Assembly: GCA_041690215.1 (NCBI GenBank) | Contig: JAWLHQ010000008.1 | Span: forward strand, 4,170 to 68,169 | Reading direction: 5' to 3' | Length of the DNA stretch: 64,000 nt | Origin: Rhodothermales bacterium | Lineage (GTDB): Bacteria; Bacteroidota; Rhodothermia; Rhodothermales; DASSAV01 | Shown: piece after piece, positions 2,570-64,000 of the stretch | Layout of the letters: each line of letters opens with the position of its first letter | How positions within the stretch are numbered: the first letter of the stretch is position 1 | Program-made: the position numbers and the translations under genes | Notes under the pieces: generated by a model | Database searches by the model: none | What the model was told of the DNA's origin: nothing | What the model saw: only the letters and a program-made list of their open reading frames with translations

Positions 2570-2579
2570 CGAGTGAACG

Positions 2580-2963
2580 ATGCCAACGATCTTTGCCGCT
2601 AACGAAAGCAGCGTGCTGCTCAACGGAGAGCCGATAGAAGGGGTCCGGTCTGTCGAGTACCGGTTTCACCAGGACCGGCAGAACATCTACGCGCTCGGCA
2701 GCGCCGAACGTATCGGCATGACTTCGGGCCGCCAATTCGTCGAGGGGCGATTGCGGGTCGCTTCCACGAGTGCCGCACTCAATGCCCTGACGGGAGACGT
2801 TCCATTCCAGATCACAGCCATGCTCAGGCAGGGCGAGACGACCATGACGGTCTCATTCGACGACTGCCACCTGTCCGAGAAGAGCTTCGAGATGGGTGCC
2901 AGCGGCTTTGGGGAGGCACTTTACCACTTCACAGCCACCCGAGTTCGCGAAGAACCCGCCTGA
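2580..2963 (+). CDS. Tail tube protein (short, XkdM/Mu-like rather than typical T4 gp19/Afp1-like)
   Basis: 127 aa, beta-rich, directly after the sheath; IYALGSAERIG...GRLRV and TVSFDDC...F pattern of contractile tube proteins. Confidence 0.7.
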   Translation: MPTIFAANESSVLLNGEPIEGVRSVEYRFHQDRQNIYALGSAERIGMTSGRQFVEGRLRVASTSAALNALTGDVPFQITAMLRQGETTMTVSFDDCHLSEKSFEMGASGFGEALYHFTATRVREEPA

Positions 2964-3007
2964 GATAGTCCGGCTAAATCTCTGCATTTCGAGAGGAAGC
3001 TGTAGTC

Positions 3008-4261: not shown

Positions 4262-4926
4262 TGGAACCCGAATCGCGTCCCATACCGCTGCTGGGAGATA
4301 TCCCCCTCGAATACGGCCAGGCCATCGAGCATGCGCTCGATGCGGGCTTCGTGTCTCTTCCGATTGCCGGGCTTGAGGGAGAACTGCAGCAGCGTCTGAG
4401 CAGGCGCAGTCATCGCATTCGAATCTCCGGCTATCTCGTCGGGGAGGATGCGGCGGAAAAACTCAAAACCCTGCAGCAGGCAGCAGCAAAGGGTGAGGCG
4501 CTGACCTTCTCAGCCGATATCACACGCGCGTTAGACCTTCAGCAGGTCGTCATCACGTCCTTCCGGGCAGCAGAATCAGCGGGGCAGCCGAACGTTTTCC
4601 GGTACGACATTGAAATCGCCGAAAGCCCGCCCCTTCCGCCGCCCGCACAGGTAGATCCTTTGGGCGGTCTCGGCGATTTCGGTTTGGGAGACCTCGGCTT
4701 CGACGAGGGGCTACTGGGCGATGTGCAAGATCTGGCAGGAGAAGTCGCTGGTGCTGTCGACGACGCCCTGAATGTGATCGACCAGCTCGGAGCGCTGGCG
4801 AACCTGGACGGCCTCAGTGTCGGCGGCATCCTCGAACCGCTCAGCACGTCCACAGACACCGTCCGCGATATCGGAACCGGACTGGCCTCGGCGGCCGGAA
4901 GTCTGCGGAGCATCTTTTTCGACTGA
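4261..4926 (+). CDS. Putative tube initiator / DNA-circularisation N-terminal-like baseplate protein
   Basis: 221 aa, start overlaps the previous stop. Beta-rich N-domain (IRISGYL...VVITSF...FRYDIEIAE) in the position of Afp7/gp48-like genes; acidic Gly/Leu-rich tail. Confidence 0.5.
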   Translation: MEPESRPIPLLGDIPLEYGQAIEHALDAGFVSLPIAGLEGELQQRLSRRSHRIRISGYLVGEDAAEKLKTLQQAAAKGEALTFSADITRALDLQQVVITSFRAAESAGQPNVFRYDIEIAESPPLPPPAQVDPLGGLGDFGLGDLGFDEGLLGDVQDLAGEVAGAVDDALNVIDQLGALANLDGLSVGGILEPLSTSTDTVRDIGTGLASAAGSLRSIFFD

Positions 4927-4929
4927 GCT

Positions 4930-5946
4930 ATGACCCCTCGCGTAACTCTCACCGTCGGCAGCGTCCGGTACGACACGCACGTGACCGAGGCTGTGGTCTC
5001 GCTCGGCTTCCTGCCGGGCGTGGGGACGGCTCACATCAGTCTGCCGTCCGCCACGCAATTCGACGCTGCTCCCGGAGAAAATGTGGAGATCACGCTGGAC
5101 AGCGGCGAGCGCGAAGCTGTCGTGCTGACAGGTACGATCGGGGCCCTACATCGAGACCTACGTGCCGTCGAGATCGTCGCGGCCGATGCCGGCGCACTGC
5201 TCGGGTCCGCCCGGCCCGCCGCCACGTTCGAGGCCTTGAGCGCCGGCGATGTCATCCGGAAGCTGGCCGGGGAAGCGGGCGTCGAGGTACGGATTTCCGG
5301 CGCAGACGTGGAGCTACCCTATTACGTGGCCCATCAGGGACAGACTGCTGCCGAACACGTTGCGGCCCTCGCGCGTCTGTGCGGATGCCTGGCGCTGGTG
5401 AATGCCGAAGGAGCCGTAGACGTTCACCCGACGCCACAAGGACGGCCCGAGGTCGCCCTGCGCTATGGACGCGAGTTGCTCGATTACCGCGCCGCCAGCA
5501 GACCGGTGGCGCCTTCGTTCGTGCGCCTGGGAAGCGGTCCTGCGGGGAACGCTGGTGCCCCGAATGCGCTCCTTCCGAGCTTCGACCGCCTCCCCGCGAG
5601 CGCTCCTGCTCCGGGAACCGAAACGCGGTGGATCCCCACATCGGTCATCAAGACACCTGGCGGGGCAACTACTGCCTCGAATGCTGAAAGCCGAGTCCAT
5701 GCAGCATCCAGACACCAGGTGCGGGCAGTCTGCTTTCTGCTGCCGCACATCCGGCCTGGCGCCGTCCTGGAGGTTCAGGACCTCCCTGAAGAGTTAGCGA
5801 GCGGGCCCTGGCTCGTCACGCGTGTGCGGCACCACGTCGGATCGCCACGAGGGGCACGCACGATCATCGAAGGATGGACAGCAAAAACCGGCAGCCTCTT
5901 CGATGGGATCTTCGGGGCAGCACTTGCCGGTGGAGGGCTGCTATGA
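4930..5946 (+). CDS. Baseplate hub protein (gpD/gp44/gp27-like)
   Basis: 338 aa between initiator and spike. YVAHQGQTAAEHVAALARLCG and LRPGAVLEVQ...GPWLVTRVRHH match hub (late control D) patterns. Confidence 0.7.
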   Translation: MTPRVTLTVGSVRYDTHVTEAVVSLGFLPGVGTAHISLPSATQFDAAPGENVEITLDSGEREAVVLTGTIGALHRDLRAVEIVAADAGALLGSARPAATFEALSAGDVIRKLAGEAGVEVRISGADVELPYYVAHQGQTAAEHVAALARLCGCLALVNAEGAVDVHPTPQGRPEVALRYGRELLDYRAASRPVAPSFVRLGSGPAGNAGAPNALLPSFDRLPASAPAPGTETRWIPTSVIKTPGGATTASNAESRVHAASRHQVRAVCFLLPHIRPGAVLEVQDLPEELASGPWLVTRVRHHVGSPRGARTIIEGWTAKTGSLFDGIFGAALAGGGLL

Positions 5947-6608
5947 GCACTGCCCTGTACGATAGTGTCTCCCGCATCGCGCGCCATGAGGTGAGATCCC
6001 GCCCTGTGGCAGCGATCGCTCGCGTGACGGAGCTTTTCGAAAAGGCCGGTCCTGATACCGACTACGCCGTCTCGGTCGAACTGCGCGACACCGGGCTCGT
6101 GCTGCCACGTGTGCCCGTGGCGACGGGTGTGAGCGGCATGGCCGCGCTTCCGGCAGTGGAGGACCTCGTCGTGGTCCTGTTCGCTGAAGGCGACTACCAC
6201 GCGCCCGTCGTCGTGGGGCGCCTGCACAGTCCGGGTGTACCCGCGCCCGAGCATCGGAGCGGCGAGATCGTGCTCCAGCTACCTGCCGGCAGCAAGTCGG
6301 ACGATGCCAAGCTGGATCTCAATATCAAGGGGGATACACCCCAGATACGACTTCGCCTCGGCAGCGATATCACGGTACAGCTGGATGGGGAGCAGGTGCT
6401 CATCGAAGCGGGCGACATGAAGGTGGCACTCACGACGGCTGGAGGTGGCAGCGCCGAGGTCGCAGCAGGCGAGGCAACGATCACGATGAAGGCGAGCGGA
6501 GACGTGAGTGTGAAGGCATCGAACAAGCTCGTCCTGGAGGCGAGTCAGATCGAGATCAAGGGCAATGCCACCGTCAAGATCCAGGGCGGAACGGTGGATA
6601 TCAACTGA
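5943..6608 (+). CDS. Baseplate spike protein (gpV/gp5 OB-fold, VgrG C-terminal-like)
   Basis: ATG at 5943 overlaps the hub stop. LPRVPVATG...LPAVEDLVVVLFAEGDYHAPVVVGRL is the gp5 OB motif, followed by a beta-helix (ITMKASGDVSVKASNKLVLEA). Confidence 0.8.
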   Translation: MSTALYDSVSRIARHEVRSRPVAAIARVTELFEKAGPDTDYAVSVELRDTGLVLPRVPVATGVSGMAALPAVEDLVVVLFAEGDYHAPVVVGRLHSPGVPAPEHRSGEIVLQLPAGSKSDDAKLDLNIKGDTPQIRLRLGSDITVQLDGEQVLIEAGDMKVALTTAGGGSAEVAAGEATITMKASGDVSVKASNKLVLEASQIEIKGNATVKIQGGTVDIN

Positions 6609-6633
6609 GAAAACAAGCTTAACTGGAATACCA

Positions 6634-7032
6634 ATGGGACTTCCCGCTGCTACTGCCAACCATACCGTGATCGGCGTCGACACTCACATCGTGATGGTAC
6701 CGACGCCCGGAGGGCCGGTGCCGACCCCGCTGCCGCACCCCTTCAACGGCATCCTGCAGGGGGGGCTGGTGCAGACGGTGAAGATCGCCGGTCAACCTGC
6801 TGCCGTGCAAAACTCCGTCGCGAACAATACGCCGCCCCACCTACCCACTCCTCCGGGCGTCTCATTCCAGAAGCCACCCGCCAATCAGGGTACGGTGCTC
6901 ATGGGCAGCCCGACAGTCCGCATCGGAGGGCAGATGGCTGCGCGCAACGGCGACCCCGTTACAACCTGCAACGATCCGGCGGACATGCCCGTGGGGCAGA
7001 TCATTGCCGCAGGAACAGTCTTTATCGGCTGA
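6634..7032 (+). CDS. PAAR-domain spike tip protein
   Basis: 132 aa from ATG 6634; VKIAGQPAAVQNS and VRIGGQMAARNGDPVTTC are PAAR-like repeats; follows the spike. Confidence 0.85.
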   Translation: MGLPAATANHTVIGVDTHIVMVPTPGGPVPTPLPHPFNGILQGGLVQTVKIAGQPAAVQNSVANNTPPHLPTPPGVSFQKPPANQGTVLMGSPTVRIGGQMAARNGDPVTTCNDPADMPVGQIIAAGTVFIG

Positions 7033-49258: not shown

Positions 49259-49636
49259 ATGAATGAGACTCAGCAGAACCCGGAAACGCAGCAGGAGTCG
49301 TCCGTGGCCGGCAAATCTACTGTAACCCGGCGAGCCATTCTGAAAGCAGGGTGGGTAGCACCCGTCGTTCTGGCCGTTCCGCTCATGGGTACAGGAAAAG
49401 CGGGACATATTCCTCCTCATGGAAGCAGCTATACCCCTGGCAGCAAGGACTACGGAAGCAAAGGTTGGGGTAGCAATGGCTGGGGTAGCAAAGATTACGG
49501 AAATGGCAGTAAGGATTACGGGACAGGTAGCAAAGACTACGGAAGAGGCAGCAAGGATTACGGCAGGGGCGGCAAGAATTACGGGAACTGGGGCAAGGGC
49601 AGCAAGTGGTGGACTAGCTGGATAAAGTGGGATTGA
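49259..49636 (+). CDS. Putative RiPP precursor / secreted repeat peptide with twin-arginine leader and GSKDYG repeats
   Basis: GAGG RBS; leader TRRAILKAGWVAPVVLAVPL; core with five GSKDYG and one GGKNYG; followed by RRE and kinase genes. Confidence 0.75.
   Translation: MNETQQNPETQQESSVAGKSTVTRRAILKAGWVAPVVLAVPLMGTGKAGHIPPHGSSYTPGSKDYGSKGWGSNGWGSKDYGNGSKDYGTGSKDYGRGSKDYGRGGKNYGNWGKGSKWWTSWIKWD
49439..49588 (+). repeat. Coding 21-bp tandem repeat (GSKDYGx)
   Basis: Five adjacent 21-nt units at 49484-49588 plus an 18-nt copy at 49439-49456; variation is mostly synonymous. Confidence 0.9.
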
Positions 49637-49678
49637 TTAGGCCTTTAAAACCTGCATTGAGTTCATAATCACAACGTA

Positions 49679-49699
49679 AAGCTGAGTCTTTTTCAGCTT
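49679..49699 (+). terminator. Small hairpin between precursor and RRE gene
   Basis: AAGCTGA-GTCTTTT-TCAGCTT; weak U tract, so may only stabilise mRNA. Confidence 0.3.
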
Positions 49700-49701
49700 G
49701 T

Positions 49702-50010
49702 ATGTTAATGGAGTTTCTGAAGGCGAGACCCTCCCGAGCAGCTGGCGTAGTTAGCATGGACGTGCTTGAGGAGAAGGTCCTTTTCCATCCGGCGAGGCAA
49801 GAGGCCATTTCACTGAATGTCTCTTCTGCGGCAATATGGGATTTGTGTGACGGAACGCGTACCGTGGCTGAGATCGGACACGAACTGTCGGAATGGGCCG
49901 GAGCGCCGGAATCGGATGTACTCGCGGATGTAGAGCGAATCGTGAAGCAATTCTCAGAACTCTCGCTCTTGCATATCGATACCGCGAACCAGATTGGAGA
50001 GGACGCGTGA
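49702..50010 (+). CDS. PqqD family RiPP recognition element (RRE)
   Basis: EKVLFHPARQEAISLNVSSAAIWDLCDGTRTVAEIGHEL...DVERIVKQF...LL PqqD signature. Confidence 0.9.
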   Translation: MLMEFLKARPSRAAGVVSMDVLEEKVLFHPARQEAISLNVSSAAIWDLCDGTRTVAEIGHELSEWAGAPESDVLADVERIVKQFSELSLLHIDTANQIGEDA

Positions 50011-50867
50011 GATCAGTATCGAAGGTCGCGCGCGGTCGTGTTTGTCTGCGCTTCCTGGACTACGATGTAACAGTAGTCTCGTCCATCGAAAGTGTTCTTC
50101 AGCGCGTAGCATTCGGTTTTCGTCGGATGCTACGCGCTGATATACCAGACTCGTCTTTTGAGCTCGAGATAAGAGAAGAACACGGTCGGTATGAATTGCT
50201 GAGAAACGGAGAGCTACTTGCATCCTACTCTGATCTCTTCGAGGCCAAAACCGTCCTACGCCACGAGATCAACCGCGCATTCATTTACGCATACCCGGAA
50301 TTCTTGTGGATGCACGCCGGAGCAGTTGCCGGCAAGGACCGCGCAGCGCTCTTCGTCGGAATCTCTGGCCGGGGCAAGAGTACACTCATCACGACCCTAT
50401 GCCAGCAGGGCTTTCGCTATCTCTCCGACGACATTATTCCGCTTGATCCCGCGACAGGCAAGGCGATCCCCTACCCTATGACACCGATCGTCCGGGAGAA
50501 TATCGGGCAGGAGTTGCCTCCAGAACGTGTCGAGGAGATACCCAGGACTTTGGTTGAGTTGCCGGAGAGCACCTATTGCCGAGAACCGGTCAGTGTCGGG
50601 TCAGTGATCCTTCCCGCCTACTCGACAAAATGCCAGGCACGAATACTTCCGTTCTCACCCGGCACAACTACGCTGGACCTCGTCAAGCAATGCATCAATG
50701 CACGCGTGCATGGAGCCTCAGCCGTTACATTCATGGCCGAGTTAACCGCTTCAGTGCCCGTACTGCCCATCGAATACTCGGATGCCCAAAGCGCTGCTAA
50801 TCTGGTAAGCCGTGTGCTCAACGAATCGAGTCCTGCTACATACTCGAGCATCGGACCGGCTGCGTAA
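50007..50867 (+). CDS. HPr-kinase-related P-loop kinase
   Basis: GTG start overlapping the RRE stop; WMHAGAV...LFVGISGRGKSTL...FRYLSDD motif. Confidence 0.85.
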   Translation: MRSVSKVARGRVCLRFLDYDVTVVSSIESVLQRVAFGFRRMLRADIPDSSFELEIREEHGRYELLRNGELLASYSDLFEAKTVLRHEINRAFIYAYPEFLWMHAGAVAGKDRAALFVGISGRGKSTLITTLCQQGFRYLSDDIIPLDPATGKAIPYPMTPIVRENIGQELPPERVEEIPRTLVELPESTYCREPVSVGSVILPAYSTKCQARILPFSPGTTTLDLVKQCINARVHGASAVTFMAELTASVPVLPIEYSDAQSAANLVSRVLNESSPATYSSIGPAA

Positions 50868-52578: not shown

Positions 52579-54432
52579 TCAGAATACTTCCTCGTGCATC
52601 TGCTGCCTCCAAGACGTTGCATAACGACCGTTCTGCCGCAAAAGCTCTTCGTGGGTACCCGACTCAACCACCCTCCCTTCGTCCATGACGTGAATGATGT
52701 CGGCGCGCATAGCGGTTGTGAGGCGGTGCGTAACGATGATTGCCGTCCGCCCGTGCACCAGGCTGTGGAACCGCTCCAGCCATTGGTGCTCGGCCCAGGA
52801 ATCCATTGCGCTCGTCGGCTCATCGAGAATCACAATGGGAGCCTGTCTGAAGAAAGCTCGTGCTAGTGCGACGCGCTGCCACTCTCCACCGCTGAGCTCC
52901 GTTCCGTCCCAGAACCACTTACCCAACTGAGCGTCGTACCCGTACTTCAGTCGCTCGATCACACCGTGGGCGCCAGCCTTCTTCGCTGCCCTCCTGACCA
53001 GTTCTCTTGAAGATGGCGACTGCAGGTTTCCTATCTCTATGTTACGAGCAGCCGTCTCGTGATAGTGGACCGGATCTTGAAACAGGACTGTAATCATGCG
53101 TCGCAACTCATCGACAGGAAAGCGGCGCATGTCCATATCGTCCAGCTCGACTCGTCCTTCCTCTGGATCATAGAATCGGCACAACAGCTTGATCAGCGTG
53201 CTTTTTCCGGCACCATTGGATCCAACGATAGCAACCGTCTGACCGGCAGGAATCGTCAGGTTGAACCGTTGAAGGGCGGCCCGATCCGCGCCCGGATAAC
53301 GGAATGTCACATCCCTGAATCGTATACCCTTCTTGAGCACAGCAGGGACAGGCACAGGCTGAGGTGGATCTTCGATTTTCGAGGGCAGCTCAAGAAACTC
53401 GAAGAGATTACCAAGAAACAGGCTATTGCTGTAGATACGCCCGAGATTGTTCATGAGCGTCCGCATCAAACCCTGCCCCTGGTTGAAAGCCTGGTAAAAG
53501 AGCGCCACGTCACCCAGCGTAGCAGTTCCTTGCATGATTCTGCCGACCATCCACCCCAGAATACTGATCGTCACGGCCAGCGCGAAGATGCTCGCACCCA
53601 GGCTAACGAAGCTCTGATCCCTCACGAGCTTCAAATGCTCGCCCCGGAGTCGTTTGCGAAGCGCCTGATATGCTTCGCTGTACAGCGGTCCAAGCTGGAA
53701 CAGCCGCATTTCCGCCGCCACCGAACTGGCAGAAATGATCCAATCAAAGTAGTCGGCTCTACGCTGGTCGAGCGTCGTCTGCTCCCACCACGTATGGTAG
53801 CAATTATGAAAGTAAAGGACCACGAACACGGCCGGGCCGAGGCTCAGCATCAGAACAAGCGGAACCCAGACCCCATACCGGATCAGCACCCCTGCAATAG
53901 CGAGCAACGTGACCATGTTCTGAACGACCCCGCCGACATTCTCGACAAGTTCCAAAGGACGGGTATCAGCGCTCTCACGGGCCCGGTGCAGACGGTCGTA
54001 ATTTTCCGAGGCCTCGAAGAACGCCAGATCTACCATGTAAGACTTCTTGTGGACGAGGGCACTGACGTGGTCCCGCACCAGCGCAGCCTGCGCCGTACGG
54101 ACCCACGTACTCGCATTCTGCAGCAACTCCTTCAGGAGCAATACGCCTACCATAAGTAGCGCCGGAACCAGGATGATGCGGAGCGTCTCTGGGCTCATGC
54201 CAACACCGATGATCGACGTCAGACTATCCACCAGCATCTTTGTCAGATACACCGTTGCCGCGGGAAGCAAGCCCTCTAAGACGAGCAGACTAGCCCATAG
54301 AAGCGTCAGGGCTCCCGACGCAGCAAACACCAAGCGAAGCGCTCCTGCCAGATGGCTCAAGCGTTGCCAGACAGAGCCTCCATTGAGACGGTCACGAACC
54401 AGTGTAATCACGACTGACACTCCGCAAAACAC
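52579..54432 (-). CDS. ABC transporter permease/ATP-binding protein (peptide exporter type)
   Basis: TM domain plus GSNGAGKST, LSGGEWQRVALAR, LDEPTSAMD. Confidence 0.93.
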   Translation of the reverse strand: MFCGVSVVITLVRDRLNGGSVWQRLSHLAGALRLVFAASGALTLLWASLLVLEGLLPAATVYLTKMLVDSLTSIIGVGMSPETLRIILVPALLMVGVLLLKELLQNASTWVRTAQAALVRDHVSALVHKKSYMVDLAFFEASENYDRLHRARESADTRPLELVENVGGVVQNMVTLLAIAGVLIRYGVWVPLVLMLSLGPAVFVVLYFHNCYHTWWEQTTLDQRRADYFDWIISASSVAAEMRLFQLGPLYSEAYQALRKRLRGEHLKLVRDQSFVSLGASIFALAVTISILGWMVGRIMQGTATLGDVALFYQAFNQGQGLMRTLMNNLGRIYSNSLFLGNLFEFLELPSKIEDPPQPVPVPAVLKKGIRFRDVTFRYPGADRAALQRFNLTIPAGQTVAIVGSNGAGKSTLIKLLCRFYDPEEGRVELDDMDMRRFPVDELRRMITVLFQDPVHYHETAARNIEIGNLQSPSSRELVRRAAKKAGAHGVIERLKYGYDAQLGKWFWDGTELSGGEWQRVALARAFFRQAPIVILDEPTSAMDSWAEHQWLERFHSLVHGRTAIIVTHRLTTAMRADIIHVMDEGRVVESGTHEELLRQNGRYATSWRQQMHEEVF

Positions 54433-54462: not shown

Positions 54463-55464
54463 TTACAGGGCCTCCACATCCTTGATGATTTCTGCAGCCA
54501 CGTCAGGAAGGCGGTCCAGTCCATTCGAATAATGAACTCGGCGCACCGAGACTTGTCGCACGAGTTTGGCGAAGAAAGCCAACCGGGTGGACTGCAAACC
54601 GAAAGCCTCCACGAAATACGGAACAAAGGAATGTCGTATCAATTCCTTCATTGCTTCGAGAGGCGACAGGACCTCGATACAAACAAAATCCTCCAACCGG
54701 TCTCTCCGTTCAGGAATGTAGATGCAGGCTAGTGGCTGCGGCGAGGAGCAGAAAGCACCGAAACTGCTCTCCGCGACAGGAACCCAGAGCTTTTCCAGAT
54801 ACGGAAGAACACGGCTCAGGGAATCGACAGGGCCGAGGAAGTGAGCAGCCTGTCCGGGCCACATCCGTAGCCTGGGATAGCCTGGCATGGCCATCACCTC
54901 CCCCCGCGACATGGTAAGCGGTAAGACATCGTCTGTAAGCAAAGGATGCCCTTTGCGCATTAGCGACGTTGCGAGTGAAGTCTTACCGCCCATGTTTGAA
55001 GCAAGGAATCCAATTGCACGACCGGAAATGCTCACCGCGGCAGCATGCAGCGTCGGAGTGCCACGTCGTTCCAGCCAGAAGGACAGCACTGCTCCCAGAA
55101 GGTATTGCTCTACACCTTCCCTACACGCTGCATCGAAAATCTGACACGCGATTCGATCCTGCCACACGTGAAAGTCTGCAATTCCCGTGAGCCGAATGAG
55201 ATCATAATTCGGCCCCCGATATAAATACGCCAGACTCTGCCCTGAATAATTCAGATCGCGGCTGGCGAAGACAAGAGTGAGTTCTTTTGCCAGGTCTCGA
55301 GGATGTGCATCCACAAATGCCGTGACAACCACATCCGGGGCACCCGCGTCGATAGGCTCGAGACATGTGAACTCAAACTCGCTGGCGATGACTAAACCGT
55401 ACAGGGAATACACAACTCTTGCGCTCTTCGGAACAGGGAAGGTATCTGCCTGGCTATGCACCAT
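54463..55464 (-). CDS. HPr-kinase-like lasso peptide kinase (PadeK-like)
   Basis: LHAAAVSISGRAIGFLASNMGGKTSLA...LLTDD...PGYPRLRMW; inside the lasso cluster. Confidence 0.8.
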   Translation of the reverse strand: MVHSQADTFPVPKSARVVYSLYGLVIASEFEFTCLEPIDAGAPDVVVTAFVDAHPRDLAKELTLVFASRDLNYSGQSLAYLYRGPNYDLIRLTGIADFHVWQDRIACQIFDAACREGVEQYLLGAVLSFWLERRGTPTLHAAAVSISGRAIGFLASNMGGKTSLATSLMRKGHPLLTDDVLPLTMSRGEVMAMPGYPRLRMWPGQAAHFLGPVDSLSRVLPYLEKLWVPVAESSFGAFCSSPQPLACIYIPERRDRLEDFVCIEVLSPLEAMKELIRHSFVPYFVEAFGLQSTRLAFFAKLVRQVSVRRVHYSNGLDRLPDVAAEIIKDVEAL

Positions 55465-56641
55465 ATCCTTTTACGAGGAGTCTCTGAGCGAGAAGCTCGT
55501 TTACGAATGCCCGGACATCGTCCTTCAACTGCGATGCATCCACGTCGTATGCCTTGTAGAGGGATGACTCCGCACCGGCAATCGAGCCACTTTCAGCAAC
55601 GGCTTCCCAGATATCGGCAGCAGTCCCCTCCAGCGTGTAACAGGTCTCGGTCTGCAGGTCTCCAATAACGACCTGCCCTTTGAGCCGCCCAAATATTACG
55701 TGCGGAGCCACCTGTAGCGGACCTTTCCCCTCCCGCTGCACCTGCACGACTGGTCGGTTATCCTTGTTCTCAATACGGTTCTTCAGGCACAGCGCTGGAG
55801 CAGCCAGGCGCCAGCCAAGCTCCACTTTCTCCGTAACAGGGTTGATCACCGCGATGTCAGGCTCGCTCCAGGGAAAGCAGAGATGATCCGGCTGACCACT
55901 CCAGTAAAAATCACGCCCCGATACTCCTGCCCACCGCGCCTTCCAGGCAGAATAGTCTTCCTGATGTAGTGCTGGCGCGTGATCGCAAAGATCCCGGGCA
56001 CTCACACAGGCCAGCACGCGCGGCTCGCTGGACTCGATTGCCTTGCGTAGATCCGGGTGTGAGTACAGATGTGCGAAGATGACCTCAGCACCCTCATTCT
56101 GCCGTAGATAATGGTAGAAACGTGTTCCGGAAAGTGCACAATCGTCGATCACCACGCGAGGAACACTTTCTATAGAAGTCATTGACAACTGATCCGGCCT
56201 CAGGCCAAGCGCATAAGCCACCATTCCCAGCACAATAAGTCCTCCACGGGGGATAGCGCAGAACTGGTAGTCATGCAAAGTTGCTTCGCCAAATCGCTCC
56301 ACCAGCCGCTCGGCGAGAAGCTCCGCATCCCGTTCCGCCTGCTCATAACCGACATAACGCAGGTGGGGCAACACGTACTTCAGTTCAGTAGCAAGCGCCT
56401 CGATACGTCCCTCAGCCTCGTTGTCAAAAAAGCCAATAATGCCCAGTTCTGGGGGCAATCCTGGTCGGACGACGAGCACGGAGTCCGGCAATGCGTTCCA
56501 GGCCGGGCTCGAAGCCAGCCCCTCAGCCAGACTCATTAGTACGCGTTCCCTATCCTCCGGCGTGCCTTCAGGATACGGGATCTCCTCCGGCAATGGTAAC
56601 ACATATACCCGAGGTCGAAGCCGCATCCTCATGTCATTCAT
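55454..56641 (-). CDS. Phosphoribosyltransferase-like domain fused to C-terminal PqqD/RRE
   Basis: AIPRGGL and VVIDDCALSGTRF (type I PRTase PRPP loop); C-terminal VVIGDLQTETCYTLEGTAADIWEAV...DDVRAFVNELLAQRLL RRE. ATG 56641 preferred because a terminator hairpin lies upstream (ORF open from GTG 56755). Confidence 0.8.
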   Translation of the reverse strand: MNDMRMRLRPRVYVLPLPEEIPYPEGTPEDRERVLMSLAEGLASSPAWNALPDSVLVVRPGLPPELGIIGFFDNEAEGRIEALATELKYVLPHLRYVGYEQAERDAELLAERLVERFGEATLHDYQFCAIPRGGLIVLGMVAYALGLRPDQLSMTSIESVPRVVIDDCALSGTRFYHYLRQNEGAEVIFAHLYSHPDLRKAIESSEPRVLACVSARDLCDHAPALHQEDYSAWKARWAGVSGRDFYWSGQPDHLCFPWSEPDIAVINPVTEKVELGWRLAAPALCLKNRIENKDNRPVVQVQREGKGPLQVAPHVIFGRLKGQVVIGDLQTETCYTLEGTAADIWEAVAESGSIAGAESSLYKAYDVDASQLKDDVRAFVNELLAQRLLVKGYGA

Positions 56642-56698: not shown

Positions 56699-56759
56699 AG
56701 TACGAAGGCCTCCATGCCCTACAGATTGCGTGGTACAGCCTACCTCGTCATCCACCTGG

Positions 56760-56906
56760 TCAGGACTTCTTCTTGTCGTGGCCAGGCGGGTTGACGCTGC
56801 CCAACTTAAGGTCCGTGCCAGGTCTCGTGAGGCCTACTCCAGTGATGTCACTGACGCTGCCCCACTGCTGCAGCATGGGTCGTGCGTAGAGCTTTTTCTC
56901 CGTCAT
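56760..56906 (-). CDS. Lasso peptide precursor (48 aa)
   Basis: Hand translation MTEKKLYARPMLQQWGSVSDITG-VGLTRPGTDLKLGSVNPPGHDKKKS*; exact YxxPxLxxxGxxxxxT leader; Asp at core position 9; AGGAG RBS; next to the cyclase. Confidence 0.9.
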   Translation of the reverse strand: MTEKKLYARPMLQQWGSVSDITGVGLTRPGTDLKLGSVNPPGHDKKKS

Positions 56907-57062: not shown

Positions 57063-58973
57063 CTACGATCCCCAGTACTGCCGGAGCCACATTTCCAGTG
57101 TAAGCGCCCACCAAAAGAACGGATGTTCCGTTTCCCCCCGGCATATTGCCTCGAAATGATCGCGTAGCACCTCCTCTCGCACAAAGCCTCTCCGGCTGGC
57201 CTCCATGTTCGTCGTCAAGTCGAGTACGGTATCTTTCTCCTTCTTCGTAATCGCCCATTCGTAGAGTGGATATGGAATGATTTTCGTCACAGCCTGCCGC
57301 ACCTCCTCAGGCATGATGCCTCGCATCGCCTGCCGAGCCAGACGCTTATCCTCGCCCGTCCGATTCAACACACGCTGCGGAACAGCTACGGCAAAGGAGA
57401 CGATACGACGGTCACTCCATGGATCGGCAAATCCGATCCCGTAGCGCGCCTGGGTCCGCTCCGACCATACTACTCCGCGCATGTGCATAGAGACGAAAAC
57501 CGCTTGATATCGCTGCTGACGGGCGAATGTCCGCAGGTCTACCGGGTGCTCGTTCCTCCGCATGGATTCGATAAGTCCGCTACGCTTAACGAACTCGGGA
57601 TGGACCCACGTAGGAATGGGCGACGGGAAAGACCGTAGTCTTCGGTGAACCTGCCGAATCCAGCCTGCCCTCGTCCTACCCCGGATCCAGGCGTGATAGG
57701 TTTTCGCCAGCTGTCTGCGAACCTCACGCCGAAACGGCTCGCCTCGCCACTGGCTCACAAGTCGCAATTCGTCCCGGAGCGTTGCCCACTCTCCGGCCAC
57801 TGCAAGTCCTACATAATCATAGTTCGCCATGCCCATCGTAAGGTCTCCTCGATCTCCAGAGAGCATGAGCCCGATCCCCCGGGATCGGGCATCAGCGAGC
57901 GACTCCTCAACGAGCGCCTGATACGTCCCGATGTAAGGCTCGTCCGAATCGGGGCCGTATGCGGGGTAGTCTTTCAGCGGCCATGCTGCGTCGACCGAGA
58001 TGTCGTGCTGCGGAAACCGGTAGTGCTGCACGATGCCGTTACTGATGTGCCGCTCGTCACATTCGGGGAAGGATTCGAATGCAAAGGAATAGGCATGTAT
58101 CTCCGGAAAACGATTTTCCGGCTGACTACCCTTCCACCACCCTGCCATGGATGCGAGGCTGCCCGAATCCATCCCTCCACTCAGGAAGATGCCTACCGGC
58201 CTGGTACTTCGCAGCCGACACCGAACGGCTTCCTTGAACAGCTCCAGGAAGTGCTCTACATATTCCTCCTCATCTTGGTACCGAATCTCATGCTCCAGAT
58301 CGATGTCCCAGTACCGCCAAGTCCTCACCCCGTCTGCGTCGACTCGCAGAGCGTGACCGGGAGGTAACTGGTTGACACCCTCATAGAATGTCCAGGTAAG
58401 TTCATCGAAATGCCCTGCGAGATAGGCGGCAACGTACGGTTCGAAAATCCTACGCGGCACCTTTGGCGCTGCCAGGATCTGCTTCACCTCGGTAGCGAAG
58501 AGAAAGCGGTCGGACTCTTGCCGGTAGTAGATTGCCCGCATAGCCATCGGGTCCCGCGCGGCAAAAAGACAGTGTTCCTGCACATCCCAGAGCGCAAAGG
58601 CAAAGTCGCCGATGATATGCGCCGCACACTCAGTCCCCCAGTGCTGATACGCCGCCAGAATCAGTTCGGCATCAGACGGTGCATCGTCCTTGAGCAGCCC
58701 CTTCGCTGAAAGTGCGTGGATCAGCTCATCACGGTTATCCACGCGCGCATCGGCAGTGAGCACCAGCCCCCCATCTCGGCTCACGAGAGGCTGACACTCT
58801 CCTATGGATTCCGGCACAAGGTTGTACGCGAGGTGCCCCATGCCGACTTGGCCAGATGTCCAGACCTGCATGCCATCATGCCCGCGGTGCGCAGCTGCTT
58901 CTGCCATCCGGCGAATCACGGCCGGATCTACAGGCCGCCCGTCACGATGGAATACACCGCAGATACCGCTCAT
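57063..58973 (-). CDS. Lasso peptide isopeptide-bond-forming cyclase (asparagine synthetase-like)
   Basis: AsnB-like fold with FLSGGMDSGS ATP-PPase loop; starts MSGICG, lacking the catalytic Cys1 of true AsnB; adjacent to a lasso precursor. Confidence 0.88.
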   Translation of the reverse strand: MSGICGVFHRDGRPVDPAVIRRMAEAAAHRGHDGMQVWTSGQVGMGHLAYNLVPESIGECQPLVSRDGGLVLTADARVDNRDELIHALSAKGLLKDDAPSDAELILAAYQHWGTECAAHIIGDFAFALWDVQEHCLFAARDPMAMRAIYYRQESDRFLFATEVKQILAAPKVPRRIFEPYVAAYLAGHFDELTWTFYEGVNQLPPGHALRVDADGVRTWRYWDIDLEHEIRYQDEEEYVEHFLELFKEAVRCRLRSTRPVGIFLSGGMDSGSLASMAGWWKGSQPENRFPEIHAYSFAFESFPECDERHISNGIVQHYRFPQHDISVDAAWPLKDYPAYGPDSDEPYIGTYQALVEESLADARSRGIGLMLSGDRGDLTMGMANYDYVGLAVAGEWATLRDELRLVSQWRGEPFRREVRRQLAKTYHAWIRGRTRAGWIRQVHRRLRSFPSPIPTWVHPEFVKRSGLIESMRRNEHPVDLRTFARQQRYQAVFVSMHMRGVVWSERTQARYGIGFADPWSDRRIVSFAVAVPQRVLNRTGEDKRLARQAMRGIMPEEVRQAVTKIIPYPLYEWAITKKEKDTVLDLTTNMEASRRGFVREEVLRDHFEAICRGETEHPFFWWALTLEMWLRQYWGS

Positions 58974-59545
58974 GACGACATCACTTCTCGATGCGTCCAG
59001 GGCTCGAAGCTTTTTGCCTCATAGCGTCCACATAGCAAAGCGAGGCGTTTGACATCGAGGAGCAGCTTCGCGTGATCATGGTGAAAGGCAGTGAGTCCGT
59101 GCTCCTCAGTCTGCTTGACAGCAAAACGTCTCACCTGGTCCCACAACTGAACCGAATCGTCTCGCCCTCCTAGATATCGGTAGATGGACTCAATCAGAGC
59201 CTGCGTCTGCCTGACAGTTTCCATGCATTCATCGAATTCGAGCGCTCCCTCCCGCAACTGTTTTAATAGATCACAGGCATACGCACCACAAACCCGCGGT
59301 CTATCAGGAAAGATGGAGCATTTATATTGCTTTTCATCGAAACGTGGACAGGGCAGTGAAAACGCGTCGTACTCGTAGCCTTTCTGCACGACAGGGAGCT
59401 GCATGCTCAACGCGAATTCGACTTCGTCAGGATCAAGTCCCGCATGGCTGTGAAGTACGCCATGACAGCAGAGTCCGCAGGAAAGGCATAATTCCATTGC
59501 TTTCGTAGCCAGCTCTTCTGCAGGGCTTGTGATTGTGTTCTCCAT
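58970..59545 (-). CDS. YkgJ family cysteine-cluster protein (CxxCxxCC)
   Basis: CLSCGLCCHG...CPRF...CSIFPDRPRVCGAYAC; stop overlaps the cyclase start; ATG 59545 preferred (ORF open from 59590). Confidence 0.85.
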   Translation of the reverse strand: MENTITSPAEELATKAMELCLSCGLCCHGVLHSHAGLDPDEVEFALSMQLPVVQKGYEYDAFSLPCPRFDEKQYKCSIFPDRPRVCGAYACDLLKQLREGALEFDECMETVRQTQALIESIYRYLGGRDDSVQLWDQVRRFAVKQTEEHGLTAFHHDHAKLLLDVKRLALLCGRYEAKSFEPWTHREVMSS

Positions 59546-59710
59546 GGTGAACCTGTACGTAAAAGGTTGCGAGTACTCCCATGTCGGCATCTCCGGAAGA
59601 TATTGGAGAACCGGAGAATGAGAAGGTGCTCATGCCCGGCAGTTAGATGCGTCCTGAGCCTGGATGGACTTACATCGCTGATCTATGATGCCAACCGCCA
59701 AAACTACATA

Positions 59711-60889
59711 CTAGTCCTCCGGCACCCACGCGATGCTACGTTGTGCTCTTCTGGCAAGCGCGTACATAAAGTAACGAGTTTTCGTCAACACAGAATCCTG
59801 CACCGCCAGATGAAATCGGAAGCGCTCGTCAGGAGTCATGCGCTCTTCATGAGTCCTGACGAGCCACGTCATGAGTTGCCTTTCAAGCTCCTCGACCTTC
59901 GCATCGCGCATGGACCATCTCACAATGCCTGGAGGCAGGGGCGCATCCAGCAGCTTATGCGCCATATAGATACCAAGCCTGAGGATGCGCGTAGCACGCG
60001 TCCGCCGCGCCCGGTCAATCACCACATCCCAGTCTAGCCCCGGACTCGAACGAATGAGTTCCGCAACGTCGCAGTAGTGCTTCAGTACCTCCCACCGGTT
60101 CTTTACGCCATGAAAACACAGAATAAGAAGCATGTCTTCGGGAGAAAACGTGCGCAGGTTCATCCCGCCGACAGCCACAGTTACGGCACGGTCCATGAGG
60201 TCCTCAAACCTGAGATTATACCGGTATCCCGGCGGCATGATGCCTACGTGCAGGTCAAGAGCTACTAAACCGCGGGCGAAGGTGGACTGTCGCGAAAGCG
60301 CGCGATACAAGAATCTACTTACTCCCTCCAATTCTCCCGCACGTCCGACGAGTTGAAATCCCTCCCTCAACAATACTGCCTCGGTCTCCCTGTATTTGTT
60401 CGCAGGAATAAGTACATCAATATCACCACACGAACGAAGACCGAGACTCCTATAAGCCATCTGCGCGAGGACGGGACCCTTGAACGCAATGCCTGGAATT
60501 CCGTGGGAGTCTAAAGCGTTCAGAATCCGTGCTTGCTCTCCGGAGAGGGAAAGGTTCCGAACGGCCACATCTCTGCCTACTTGTCCAAGCTGAGGCGGCA
60601 GATCAACCTGGCTCCCGTTGAAACGGACCAGCGCAAGCGTCTTCGCAACCAGCGGAAGTACCCCATGAAATGAGGCCAGGCGCAATAAGCGCGGCCAATC
60701 CGTAACTTCTCGGACTAGTTCTCGAATGGTTTCAGCTCGGCCCTCACGCAGATCCGTCGTCGCAGAGGCCATGAGCAAATCCATATAGACTGACTGTCCT
60801 TTCATCGGAAAGTCGGTAAGATCTGCGCGAGCAGTTCGGAAGTAACTGATAGTTTCTCCGTGTAGTAGTACAGGGGGAGCGTTATCCAT
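59711..60889 (-). CDS. Nucleotidyltransferase family protein (NTP_transf_5 type)
   Basis: AFKGPVLAQMAY...RSCGDIDVLI, LDLHVGI, LILCFHGVK, RWEVLKHYCDVAELI. Confidence 0.9.
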   Translation of the reverse strand: MDNAPPVLLHGETISYFRTARADLTDFPMKGQSVYMDLLMASATTDLREGRAETIRELVREVTDWPRLLRLASFHGVLPLVAKTLALVRFNGSQVDLPPQLGQVGRDVAVRNLSLSGEQARILNALDSHGIPGIAFKGPVLAQMAYRSLGLRSCGDIDVLIPANKYRETEAVLLREGFQLVGRAGELEGVSRFLYRALSRQSTFARGLVALDLHVGIMPPGYRYNLRFEDLMDRAVTVAVGGMNLRTFSPEDMLLILCFHGVKNRWEVLKHYCDVAELIRSSPGLDWDVVIDRARRTRATRILRLGIYMAHKLLDAPLPPGIVRWSMRDAKVEELERQLMTWLVRTHEERMTPDERFRFHLAVQDSVLTKTRYFMYALARRAQRSIAWVPED

Positions 60890-61322: not shown

Positions 61323-62396
61323 CTATGGCAAGCTAATTTTGGCAACCAGTGGTCTGTGATCAGATGCTGTACTGCGGAGAATTCTCGCGTCCAGGATGCG
61401 CCAGTGTGGACTCACAAGCATATGATCTATCCGGACCAGTGGTACGACACTATGGTACGTTCCTCCCCAGCCGCTCCCAGCAACCTCAAAAACGTCCTGG
61501 TGACCGCGGCGCAGATGCCAGTACACCCACTGGTGTGGTGTGCTGTTGAAGTCGCCACATATGATATAGGGCAATTCTTCCTGTGATAGGATTTCTCGAA
61601 TCTGAGATGCCTCATCCGCGCGTATCAGAAAGTCTTTCCCATAGCTCAACATGTTGGCGAATAGCGTGCTCAGCCGTCCAATTTCGCCAGTAAGTGCGCT
61701 TGAATGACCATCCGGATTAAAAGAGCGTAGGTGCACGTTGTATATGGCCACCGCTTGTCCCTCCCAGCGCAGAACGGCTCGGGTAAGCACCTGACGTCGC
61801 TCGCCGCTAGAATCGATCGACCAGGATCTCAGTCCGGGCTCCACCCAGTCAAGCTTACTGAAAACCGGTAGTCGTGTCCCATCCTCCGTAGGATCTGACA
61901 TCCACCTGGCCGGCTCCCATCCTGCCTCTGCTACGAGCCGAGCCTGAGGTGACATGATCATGATCGGCGGATCCGCCGAATATCCCGTATACGTCTCCTG
62001 AAGACCAATAATGTCCGGGTGTGCTTCTTGGAAAGCCTTCAACAATGAAGCCTCACCGCGGCGTCCTTCCCTGAGCTTGACATTATTCGTGAGTACCCGC
62101 AGTACAGGCCTATCGCCGGCACTGGAGCGGAGTAATCGTTCTGTTGGAAAAAATCGGACCACTACCAGAACCACAGCAAGTAGATGTGCTAGCAGCAGCG
62201 CAGGATGCCGCCTGAAAGCAAGAACTACCGCACTAGCCACCACCACGAACATGCTCAAGACCGGCAACCCGACGGCTAAAACCTGCAGCCACCATCCATG
62301 CTTGGGGTGAACGTAGCGAGCAGCATATGCCGCGGTAAAAAGTAGGAGTAAACCGATGTCCACGGCGAGAAGCAAACCGCTCACGTAGCGACGCAT
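61323..62396 (-). CDS. Endonuclease/exonuclease/phosphatase family protein with N-terminal TM helices
   Basis: VLTNNV, DIIGLQE, YNVHL, ICGDFNSTP, RIDHMLVS, SDHRPL. Confidence 0.9.
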   Translation of the reverse strand: MRRYVSGLLLAVDIGLLLLFTAAYAARYVHPKHGWWLQVLAVGLPVLSMFVVVASAVVLAFRRHPALLLAHLLAVVLVVVRFFPTERLLRSSAGDRPVLRVLTNNVKLREGRRGEASLLKAFQEAHPDIIGLQETYTGYSADPPIMIMSPQARLVAEAGWEPARWMSDPTEDGTRLPVFSKLDWVEPGLRSWSIDSSGERRQVLTRAVLRWEGQAVAIYNVHLRSFNPDGHSSALTGEIGRLSTLFANMLSYGKDFLIRADEASQIREILSQEELPYIICGDFNSTPHQWVYWHLRRGHQDVFEVAGSGWGGTYHSVVPLVRIDHMLVSPHWRILDARILRSTASDHRPLVAKISLP

Positions 62397-62405
62397 ACTA
62401 TATGC

Positions 62406-64000
62406 CTACACGAGCGCAAGTGGATCATCGACATCGGCAGCGTTGGCCTCACGCATCTGAGCATGCCAGGATACTGCATACCGGCCGTTCAGCGCCAGTA
62501 GCTCCTGGTGTGTCCCCGATTCAACGATACGACCACGCTCCATAACGTGAATCACGTCCGCCTTCATAGCCGTCGTGAAGCGATGCGTAATGACGATCGC
62601 CGTACGCCCCCTCACGAGATCCTTGAAGCCCTGCATCCATTCTACCTCCGTCCACGAGTCCATGGCGCTCGTAGGCTCGTCGAGCACCACGATGGGCGCA
62701 CGTCGCAAGTACGCACGCGCGAGTGCTATACGTTGCCACTGCCCCCCACTCAGGTCCATACCCTCCGGAAAGAGGCGGCCAAGAATGGTATCGTATTGCT
62801 GTGGCAGGCTTTTGATAAACCCGTCTGCATTGGCTCTGCTAGCGGCTTCTACGACCGCATCCTCGCCAGCCGACCTGCTACCCAGCGCGATATTTTCATA
62901 GGCTGTCGCCTGGTAGCGAACAGGTGTCTGCAGCATGTACGAGACCTTGCTCAGCAAGTCTCGCTTAGAGAAGCTGCGTACATCGATTCCATCAATGAGC
63001 ACGCGTCCCTGGTCCGGATCGTAGAATCGGCACAGGAGCTTCGTCAGCGTGCTCTTTCCGGCACCGTTGGACCCTACGATGGCCACGATTTTGCCTGCCG
63101 GGATCTCGAGATTGAAGTTCTCGAGAGCAGGCCGCTTACCCTCCGGGTACGTAAAGGTCACATTCTCGAATCGGATGCCGCGCGAGAGTCTGGATGGCAC
63201 AGGCAAGGGCTGCTCAGGCTCATCCAACGCCGGTACGATTGCCAGAAAGGCATAAAGATGCTCCAGGAAGAGCGTGTTTGCGTAGATCTGCCCCATGCTA
63301 CCGAGTAAGGACCGCATCAAGGATTGCCCCTGGTTGATAGCCTGGTAAAACGAGGCGATGTCGCCCAAGGTCGCCAATCCTTGAAACGCGCGCCACGCCA
63401 TCCAACCGAGTACCGCCGCGGTAGCCACGAGCCCGTGAAGCGCAGCGATGATTGAAGCGACGGATTGTTTCTTCGTTAACTCCAGGCTCTCCGTGCGCAG
63501 TCGCCTCCGCGTCTTTCGGTACTCCTGCATGAAGTACTGACCAAGGTCATAGAGCCGCATCTCAGCCGCAAATCGTGGCTCGATGAACAGAACATCGAGG
63601 TAATGGGCCCAGCGACGATCCTTTGTCGTCCGTTTCCACCATGCGTGATAGCGACGATTATGGCGGACGACGACATAAAGCGCCGGCAGGGTGCCTAGAC
63701 CGAGCAGTAGTGGAAGCCAGAGGCTATACGACGCGAGAATGGCTGCCATGGAAAGGAAAGCAATGCCGTTCTGCACGAGCGTCCCGAGGTTTTGCTGAAG
63801 TGCCAGCGTCCGGGTACTTGCCTGGCTACTTGCTTCCTGAAGCTTATCGAAAAACTCGGGGGACTCATAAAAGCCGTAATCGACCTCGATCGACTTCCGG
63901 TGAATGAGCGCCTTCACCTCGTCCTGTACGAGTTCGGCTTGAGCCGCCTGGATCCAGGTCTGCAGGCTCTGCAAGACATACTGCGCCAGGATCAGTAACG
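62406..64000 (-). CDS. ABC transporter permease/ATP-binding protein (5' end outside window)
   Basis: GSNGAGKST, LSGGQWQRIALAR, LDEPTSAMD; frame stays open to the window edge. Confidence 0.92.
   Translation of the reverse strand, partial: LLILAQYVLQSLQTWIQAAQAELVQDEVKALIHRKSIEVDYGFYESPEFFDKLQEASSQASTRTLALQQNLGTLVQNGIAFLSMAAILASYSLWLPLLLGLGTLPALYVVVRHNRRYHAWWKRTTKDRRWAHYLDVLFIEPRFAAEMRLYDLGQYFMQEYRKTRRRLRTESLELTKKQSVASIIAALHGLVATAAVLGWMAWRAFQGLATLGDIASFYQAINQGQSLMRSLLGSMGQIYANTLFLEHLYAFLAIVPALDEPEQPLPVPSRLSRGIRFENVTFTYPEGKRPALENFNLEIPAGKIVAIVGSNGAGKSTLTKLLCRFYDPDQGRVLIDGIDVRSFSKRDLLSKVSYMLQTPVRYQATAYENIALGSRSAGEDAVVEAASRANADGFIKSLPQQYDTILGRLFPEGMDLSGGQWQRIALARAYLRRAPIVVLDEPTSAMDSWTEVEWMQGFKDLVRGRTAIVITHRFTTAMKADVIHVMERGRIVESGTHQELLALNGRYAVSWHAQMREANAADVDDPLALV

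Follow-up and report, generated by a model that had tools for sequence, protein, structure and literature searches.

What might a phosphoribosyltransferase (PRTase) domain do when it is fused to a peptide-binding domain and encoded beside a lasso peptide precursor? The question is raised by a gene on the minus strand at 55454..56641 of a 64,000-nucleotide stretch of a Rhodothermales genome (the window; G000:C8:4170-68169 in genome coordinates). A preliminary description of this DNA had noted one open reading frame (ORF) at 55454-56641, between a lasso precursor and a kinase, that combines type I PRTase motifs with a C-terminal PqqD-like recognition element (RRE) of peptides made by the ribosome and modified after translation (RiPPs). 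The ORF, its position and both quoted motifs are borne out by the sequence, and the presence of the two domains in one frame is confirmed by a PF05402 match, by an AlphaFold2 model, by Foldseek, which matched XGPRT in the centre and TbiB1 at the C-terminus, and by the Pfam matches of relatives. The product is apparently an uncharacterised RRE-dependent tailoring enzyme, for which a putative leader-guided transfer of 5-phosphoribose from 5-phosphoribosyl pyrophosphate (PRPP), suggested by its conserved motifs, is plausible.

The frame closes at 55454 and encodes 395 amino acids from the ATG at 56641, from which residues are numbered here. This start is only putative, because the N-termini of relatives vary; the longest frame begins with a GTG at 56755 (433 amino acids), and further possible starts lie at 56632 and 56626. 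The gene is located downstream of the precursor, 118 nt from its end and likewise on the minus strand, and the ATG of the kinase gene K1 lies over the fusion stop codon in an 11-nt overlap. The fused architecture is shared by 479 homologues and was modelled by AlphaFold2, on 31 relatives, with a pLDDT of 91.5 and a pTM of 0.87. Four parts can be delimited, beginning with an N-terminal alpha/beta subdomain (residues 1-95, 56357..56641) defined by the secondary structure of the model and by relatives that match only from residue ~79-97. It is followed by a type I PRTase-like core (residues ~96-215, 55997..56356), recognized by Foldseek to XGPRT, by hhalign to Gpt and by conservation, and by an aromatic-rich, family-specific region (residues 216-300, 55742..55996) with the conserved pattern YWxGxPDHxCFxW(N/S)EPD...WNP...CLKNR in the alignment. 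The C-terminal PqqD-type RRE (residues 305-392, 55466..55729) is supported by PF05402, the TbiB1 profile, Foldseek and a hidden Markov model (HMM) of B1 proteins. The N-terminal subdomain is optional across the family, as short members of ~320-346 amino acids do without it. A frameshift or assembly artefact was ruled out as the origin of the fusion, since hundreds of homologues have the identical architecture.

The C-terminal ~90 residues are a lasso B1-type PqqD domain, the type predicted to bind the leader. Residues 325-389 match PF05402 at 45 bits (cut-off 23.4). The C-terminus of the model folds as a winged helix with three strands in its sheet, and Foldseek pairs it with the lasso RRE TbiB1 (E 1.2e-5, TM score 0.87). 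A search of the PDB with the family profile matched TbiB1 (E 1.5e-12), the PqqD-family lasso chaperone 9x90 and TfuB1. An HMM built from discrete B1 proteins, taken from related clusters, gives the fused RRE 62 bits, BsfB1 75 bits and the window's other PqqD protein 22 bits; the fused RRE falls below the NCBIfam lasso_PqqD cut-offs (30.8 bits vs 80 for NF033536, 30.4 vs 70 for NF033530). A leader of the YxxPxL type, YARPML at positions -17 to -12 of the precursor, is encoded 118 nt upstream. BsfB1 itself was considered as a member of the fusion family and rejected, as the published gene translates to a plain 102-amino-acid RRE.

For the middle domain, the model points to a type I PRTase fold, with E. 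coli XGPRT as its nearest relative. Foldseek aligns the centre of the predicted structure with the E. coli and Yersinia XGPRT (E 3e-5, TM 0.54-0.61, normalised by the target) and, more generally, with XGPRT, HGXPRT, APRT and OPRT (E 3e-5 to 1e-3, probability 1.0, target-normalised TM 0.4-0.6). Among relatives, PF00156 is found in 17 of 31 proteins (E <= 0.1, best 5.6e-7) and PF24390 (PRTase-CE) in 20 of 31. The type I motifs reported in the preliminary description, CAIPRGGL (residues 128-135) and VVIDDCALSGTRF (residues 163-175), are both present, one forming the pyrophosphate (PPi) loop after the first core strand, the other a hydrophobic strand followed by two acidic residues and a phosphate loop. 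A motif-level hhalign alignment with E. coli Gpt pairs IPRGGL with the PPi-loop sequence VSRGGL, VVIDD with VIDD in the PRPP motif, and RVVIDDCALSGTR with FIVIDDLVDTGGT.

Conservation is concentrated at these motifs. In an alignment of 258 members, G133, G134, D166, D167 and G172 are found in 100% of the sequences, P131 and R132 in 99% and R174 in 97%; outside the motifs, W258 is invariant, E260 is conserved in 99% and L192 in 99-100%. In the type I PRTase fold, the equivalents of P131, R132, G133, G134, D166, D167 and G172 contact pyrophosphate, the ribose hydroxyls and Mg2+, and the 5'-phosphate. The PPi loop P131-R132-G133-G134 is encoded at 56240-56251 and the acidic pair D166-D167, followed by S171-G172-T173-R174, at 56141-56146, both on the minus strand. 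This pattern of residues argues for a kept PRPP ligand site. The aromatic region 216-300 occupies the place of the acceptor-binding hood of PRTases, and we infer that it binds the acceptor.

Since no B2 leader peptidase is found in the window and Cys168, His195 and an Asp are conserved, we also considered the N-terminal part of the fusion as a substitute leader peptidase. This candidate was ruled out by the PRTase fold and by B2 proteins scoring above the cut-off in this genome and somewhere in each of the 28 related genomes checked; it is further countered by B2 genes lying within 18 of the 34 well-flanked clusters, a term used here for loci flanked by at least 7 kb on either side.

How widespread is this protein, and with which genes is it associated? 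A word-index search yielded the 479 fusion homologues at E <= 0.001 among 8000 candidates scored. When the N-terminal part alone was compared with 1.84 billion representatives, at least 444 clusters (50% identity) matched at E <= 0.001, nearly all of them of 320-430 amino acids, so that this domain occurs essentially only in fused form; matches of 273-308 amino acids without PqqD may be either fragments or genuine RRE-less forms. Homologues that carry a name in their source are annotated as hypothetical or PqqD-family proteins. Scanning one genome per species identified the fusion in 125 genomes of more than 10 phyla, including Cyanobacteria, Gemmatimonadota, Halomonadaceae, Chloroflexota, Acidobacteriota, Actinomycetota, Spirochaetota and Rhodothermales. 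It accompanies two kinase/cyclase lineages: K1/C1, at 51 loci, and K3/C2, which is cyanobacterial and has both genes at 6 loci.

The most constant neighbour is the kinase, present in 33 of the 34 well-flanked loci, followed by the cyclase (32), a discrete B1 (20), B2 (18), an ATP-binding cassette (ABC) exporter (18) and the NTP_transf_5 protein N (16). In 42 of 71 loci the kinase gene follows the fusion directly and in the same orientation; the usual gene order is B1-B2-C-A-fusion-K, where C is the cyclase, A the precursor and K the kinase. All-against-all clustering of the neighbouring ORFs revealed no further conserved partner beyond K, C, the ABC exporter, B2 and N, and in particular no glycosyltransferase or phosphatase as an extra one. 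On the chromosome of Altericista sp. CCNU0014 (locus L046 9019-11080), the kinase and the fusion form an isolated pair surrounded by housekeeping genes, with no cyclase within 10 kb and with the B2 of the genome 60 kb away. Because no other partner is conserved and the Altericista pair stands alone, the minimal conserved unit is the fusion plus the kinase. In one gemmatimonadotal locus (L020) the fusion is found alone beside what we take, from the translations, to be polysaccharide genes.

The precursor A1 (56760..56906, minus strand) is a 48-amino-acid peptide, MTEKKLYARPML...KKKS, identified from the sequence, from weak NF033528 and NF033521 matches and from related precursors. Its leader, MTEKKLYARPMLQQWGSVSDITG, shows the canonical spacing Y(-17)xxPxL, G(-8) and T(-2), from which we infer the core VGLTRPGTDLKLGSVNPPGHDKKKS with a ring between V1 and D9. 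Genome mining for PRTase-RRE fusions next to lasso precursors, as suggested earlier, identified 49 adjacent precursors. A Gly-Ser dipeptide occurs in the tail of 42 of them, compared with 16.8 expected from shuffled tails, and Gly-Ser, Gly-Thr or Gly-Cys in 46; the A1 core carries this family-conserved pair as Gly13-Ser14. Among the acceptors proposed in the preliminary description, serine has thus gained ground in the form of the internal Gly-Ser, whereas Arg5 and His20 are not conserved family-wide, which leaves Ser14 as the best candidate site. A conserved C-terminal serine of the paeninodin type is not a feature of the family, being found in merely 2 of the 49 precursors; A1 itself ends in Ser, and by analogy with paeninodin this residue is a possible extra site. 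Near-identical relatives of the A1 core (VGLTxPGxD...GSVNPPGH) are present in Trueperaceae and Halomonadaceae.

In the explanation that we favour, the fusion would be the leader-binding half of a two-gene tailoring module, completed by the HprK-like kinase, and this module would act on the linear lasso precursor prior to leader removal. The RRE would dock the leader so that K1 phosphorylates the core Gly-Ser at Ser14, and the PRTase-like domain would move a 5-phosphoribosyl group from PRPP to the peptide, the likeliest site being the phosphate of phospho-Ser14 and the alternative a serine hydroxyl. The aromatic region, with W258 and E260, would take the place of the hood that binds nucleobases and would grip the peptide, and B1, B2 and the cyclase would mature the peptide afterwards. 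Known lasso systems offer parallels for two of these steps: lasso kinases act on the linear precursor and the RRE protein BsfB1 strongly speeds the kinase BsfK (PMC10368454), and PsmN puts a hexose on the phospho-Ser of pseudomycoidin (PMC9266682), the analogy by which the phosphate of phospho-Ser14 is favoured as the site. That a leader-guided module works together with the kinase is, in our judgement, probable. The whole chain of events, from leader-guided docking through Ser14 phosphorylation and phosphoribosyl transfer to maturation, is evenly poised between right and wrong, and PRPP-dependent phosphoribosyl transfer onto the peptide, predicted from the conserved motifs, falls somewhat short of an even chance.

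Several observations weigh against phosphoribosyl transfer to Ser14. The window protein misses the Pfam PRTase cut-offs (15.8 bits vs 27 for PF24390, no match to PF00156), and a sequence-profile search of the PDB failed to reach the solved PRTases (best E 0.32), which were reached only by structure comparison and motif alignment. The hhalign alignment with Gpt has a probability of only 10% and for this reason counts as motif-level. It also contains a 17-residue gap opposite Gpt ~52-68, where a strand and the flexible catalytic loop II are absent from the fusion; in the AlphaFold2 model merely 16 residues separate helix 133-145 from strand 162-169. Loop II shields the transition state in purine PRTases, and its absence may either leave room for a peptide acceptor or mean that the domain is no longer catalytic. 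By our reading of the sequence, three positions after the DD pair deviate from the strict PROSITE pattern for PRPP binding. Nor does a kept PRPP site prove catalysis, because PurR and PyrR are PRTase folds that retain it for binding alone. The usual acceptors of type I PRTases are nitrogen nucleophiles, and clustering of the neighbouring ORFs did not reveal a conserved 5'-phosphatase partner. As to the acceptor, the Gly-Ser statistic is suggestive rather than a strict test, as the 49 precursors are related by descent, and the conservation of this dipeptide could belong to the kinase alone.

An alternative is a non-catalytic adaptor, whose RRE recruits the precursor for the kinase and whose PRTase fold serves only for docking or for sensing PRPP or a nucleotide such as (p)ppGpp, nothing being transferred; ligand sensing of the PurR/PyrR type would then tie tailoring to the nucleotide status of the cell. 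The tight pairing with the kinase fits such a role, as does BsfB1, an example of an RRE that speeds up a lasso kinase by itself, and so do the missing catalytic loop II, the ppGpp-bound PRTase-like protein 5vog among the Foldseek matches, and the far divergence of the domain from working PRTases. However, conservation of PRGG, DD and G172 at 99-100% over more than 10 phyla would be unexpected for a scaffold, W258 and E260 are also kept although they lie outside the PRPP site, and kinase-type lasso clusters manage with a plain 100-amino-acid B1, so that there is no evident need for a 300-residue extra domain. We therefore consider the adaptor an unlikely explanation, though one to be taken seriously. 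More doubtful still is other chemistry by the PRTase fold, either on the peptide or on a cofactor, such as pyrophosphoryl or nucleotidyl transfer to phospho-Ser in the manner of PRPP-synthase-like domains, or production of the donor that the NTP_transf_5 enzyme would use. In its favour, lasso peptides with polyphosphorylated or phospho-glycosylated tails are known, 16 of the 34 well-flanked loci also encode N, and no known PRTase has a hood resembling this region; yet structure comparison ranks purine and pyrimidine PRTases highest rather than PRPP synthase, the Arg-Gly-Gly of the PPi loop is typical of PRPP users, and N is absent from half of the loci. Such chemistry has, in our estimate, the lowest probability of the explanations weighed here.

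The fused RRE might, finally, be the B1 of the pathway, delivering the leader to the peptidase B2 and to the cyclase instead of, or besides, tailoring. It had been described as the only RRE in the unit, one that may double as B1, and this stands in so far as neither B1 nor B2 is encoded within the window's own unit and the fused RRE resembles lasso B1, its HMM score being near that of BsfB1 and far above that of the other PqqD protein of the window; a discrete B1 is also not found within 10 kb in 14 of the 34 well-flanked loci. It does not extend to the locus as a whole, because a second lasso unit, likewise on the minus strand, encodes a discrete 94-amino-acid lasso B1 (C8:72391-72675; NF033536 63 bits) located 4.2 kb past the end of the window and 11.6 kb upstream of the fusion; the fused RRE is thus not the only lasso-type RRE. 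The doubling is further weakened by the 20 of 34 well-flanked loci that have their own B1, typically in the order B1-B2-C-A-fusion-K; B2 stands beside B1 in 18 of these 20, so that related loci pair B2 with the separate B1, and in this genome the only B2 lies ~61 kb past the window end, not beside the fusion. A B1 role would leave the conserved PRPP site unexplained, and we regard it as improbable, only slightly less so than the other chemistry.

The other genes of the unit are those of a kinase-type lasso cluster resembling that of paeninodin, with cyclase, precursor and HprK-like kinase all present in the window, on the minus strand. The kinase K1 (54463..55464) has a Walker A motif ASNMGGKT, the histidine of LHAAAV and a TDD motif. 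Upstream of the precursor lie the asparagine-synthase-like cyclase C1 (57063..58973; PF00733 and GATase domains, NF033535 459 bits) and the NTP_transf_5 protein N of the PsmN/BsfN type (59711..60889, minus strand; PF14907 E 2.5e-60), and the ABC exporter D1 (PF00005) is encoded at 52579..54432. A CxxCxxCC protein of the YkgJ type (58970-59590) and a membrane-anchored phosphoesterase of the endonuclease/exonuclease/phosphatase (EEP) family (61323-62396), both on the minus strand, are also part of the unit, and neither gene is conserved in related loci; the EEP phosphoesterase could trim a phosphodiester-linked group during export.

The second lasso unit, of the cyanobacterial type and with the order B1-C2-A2-K3-D2, lies mainly past the window end on the minus strand (G000:C8:68431-72675, or 2432-6676 of locus L090). 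Its ABC exporter D2 (62406..64000, minus strand) is cut by the window end and is common to both sequences; the unit further encodes the cyclase C2 (NF033535 723 bits), the kinase K3 and a precursor A2, MKRTYEAPELTSFGTVAAITA / ALGGDPSPDQSEYPQIPANHGSFDVCDNQTQPDVC, with the core ALGGDPSPDQSEYPQIPANHGSFDVCDNQTQPDVC. Cyanobacterial units of this type contain a PRTase-RRE gene, whereas this one lacks it, and a single fusion protein may serve both A1 and A2. No match to PF13471 (B2) was found in the window. The sole B2 of the genome (158 amino acids, NF033537 58.7 bits, minus strand) is an orphan at G000:C8:~129.3 kb (1456-1932 of locus L001), situated between the gene of a secreted protein, with a C-terminus that we read as resembling Por/type IX secretion sorting signals, and two genes that we take, from their translations, to encode the small subunit of methylmalonyl-CoA mutase and MeaB. 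Both lasso units would depend on this orphan B2 in trans.

Near 30 kb of the window the G+C content falls from ~0.64 to ~0.55, and the peptide gene clusters are situated in the lower-GC part; together with the near-identical A1 cores in Trueperaceae and Halomonadaceae, this may reflect horizontal spread. A further, non-lasso unit at 49259-50867 on the plus strand comprises a 125-amino-acid protein, which has a Tat-like signal (TRRAILKAG) and a tail built of GSKDYG/GSKGWG repeats, a 102-amino-acid PqqD protein (49702-50010) and a third HprK-like kinase (49893-50867; TIGR04352 78 bits). Its Gly-Ser repeats recall the Gly-Ser pair in the lasso cores. The unit may encode a system of linear phosphorylated peptides or proteins, comparable to the LPP family (PMC13381572), but no signal-peptidase-like gene was seen there. 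The segment 42341-47127 (plus strand), separated by a few kb from the peptide genes, encodes a CitMHS/SLC13-type anion transporter, a PAPS_reduct-domain protein (PF01507) that we take to be CysD-like and a fused GTPase/adenylylsulfate-kinase protein that we take to be CysN/CysC-like; the last two together would presumably make 3'-phosphoadenylylsulfate.

Has such an activity been described before? The earlier remark that no characterised PRTase was known to tailor a RiPP agrees with our literature search, which covered papers other than subscription-only ones and found no paper linking a PRTase or PRPP to a ribosomal peptide and no study of a PRTase-RRE fusion family. The main text of two RRE censuses makes no mention of such a fusion, and a 2026 review of interlocked peptides contains no PRTase or PRPP term. 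The fusion may therefore add a decoration so far undescribed on ribosomal peptides. We propose, tentatively and with less confidence than the transfer itself, that it is the first leader-guided PRPP-dependent peptide phosphoribosyltransferase, which together with the kinase would convert the conserved tail serine into a phospho-(5-phosphoribosyl) adduct; that the family represents a new class of peptide modification is put forward with the same reserve. RRE-fused enzymes are a standard signpost to new ribosomal-peptide chemistry, and here the donor would be PRPP and the fold that of a type I PRTase. If this is true, a strongly anionic sugar-phosphate handle joins the lasso modifications and peptide engineering gains a new enzyme class; if the domain is a PRPP sensor instead, tailoring of a ribosomal peptide would, unusually, be gated by a metabolite. 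As the family is large (444 clusters, 125 species genomes), a single assay would annotate hundreds of clusters.

Comparison with known proteins places the two halves of the fusion in different settings. Like XGPRT (Gpt; 1A95, 4JLS, 6KQC), the fusion core has a Rossmann-like core, a PPi loop (S/P)RGG followed by a helix, and a hydrophobic strand that ends in a DD pair before a small-residue phosphate loop; unlike XGPRT, it lacks the strand and loop II, has a Trp-rich region in place of the nucleobase hood and a peptide-binding domain attached, and its sequence similarity is marginal. The RRE shares the PqqD winged helix with TbiB1 (5V1U/5V1V; 25% identity), TfuB1 (6JX3) and BsfB1 of Bradymonas sediminis, and in the discrete B1 systems, as here, the cognate leader has YxxPxL. 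Discrete B1 proteins are, however, of ~90-120 amino acids without an enzyme domain (102 in BsfB1), whereas the fusion has ~300 extra N-terminal residues and mostly coexists with a separate B1.

As to the proposed chemistry, PRPP-dependent O-phosphoribosylation is known from BtrL/NeoM in aminoglycoside biosynthesis, BtrL being a precedent for an oxygen nucleophile. BtrL/NeoM, PurR and PyrR are neither fused to an RRE nor peptide-acting, and are likened to the fusion by function only, not by homology. ADP-ribosyltransferases use NAD+. The nearest ribose-phosphate modification of a ribosomal peptide that we found is that of the ADP-ribosylated triceptide minviopeptin (PMC12912966): its pathway enzyme MicD resembles our proposal in placing a ribose-phosphate-type group on a ribosomal peptide as a step of biosynthesis, and differs in acting on another ribosomal peptide class and in being described as an ADP-ribosyltransferase, not a PRPP-dependent enzyme of the PRTase fold.

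The closest parallels at the level of the cluster are paeninodin (pade), pseudomycoidin (psm) and bsf, which share with this locus the HprK-like kinase, the NTP_transf_5 protein, the ABC exporter, the split B1/B2 logic and tailoring of the precursor while it is still linear. In bsf, BsfB1 aids B2 as well as stimulating the kinase BsfK (PMC10368454). None of the three clusters has a PRTase-like domain, unlike the fusion cluster, and the modified sites also differ: it is the C-terminal serine in paeninodin and pseudomycoidin and Ser3 in bsf, whereas the fusion family conserves an internal Gly-Ser in the tail.

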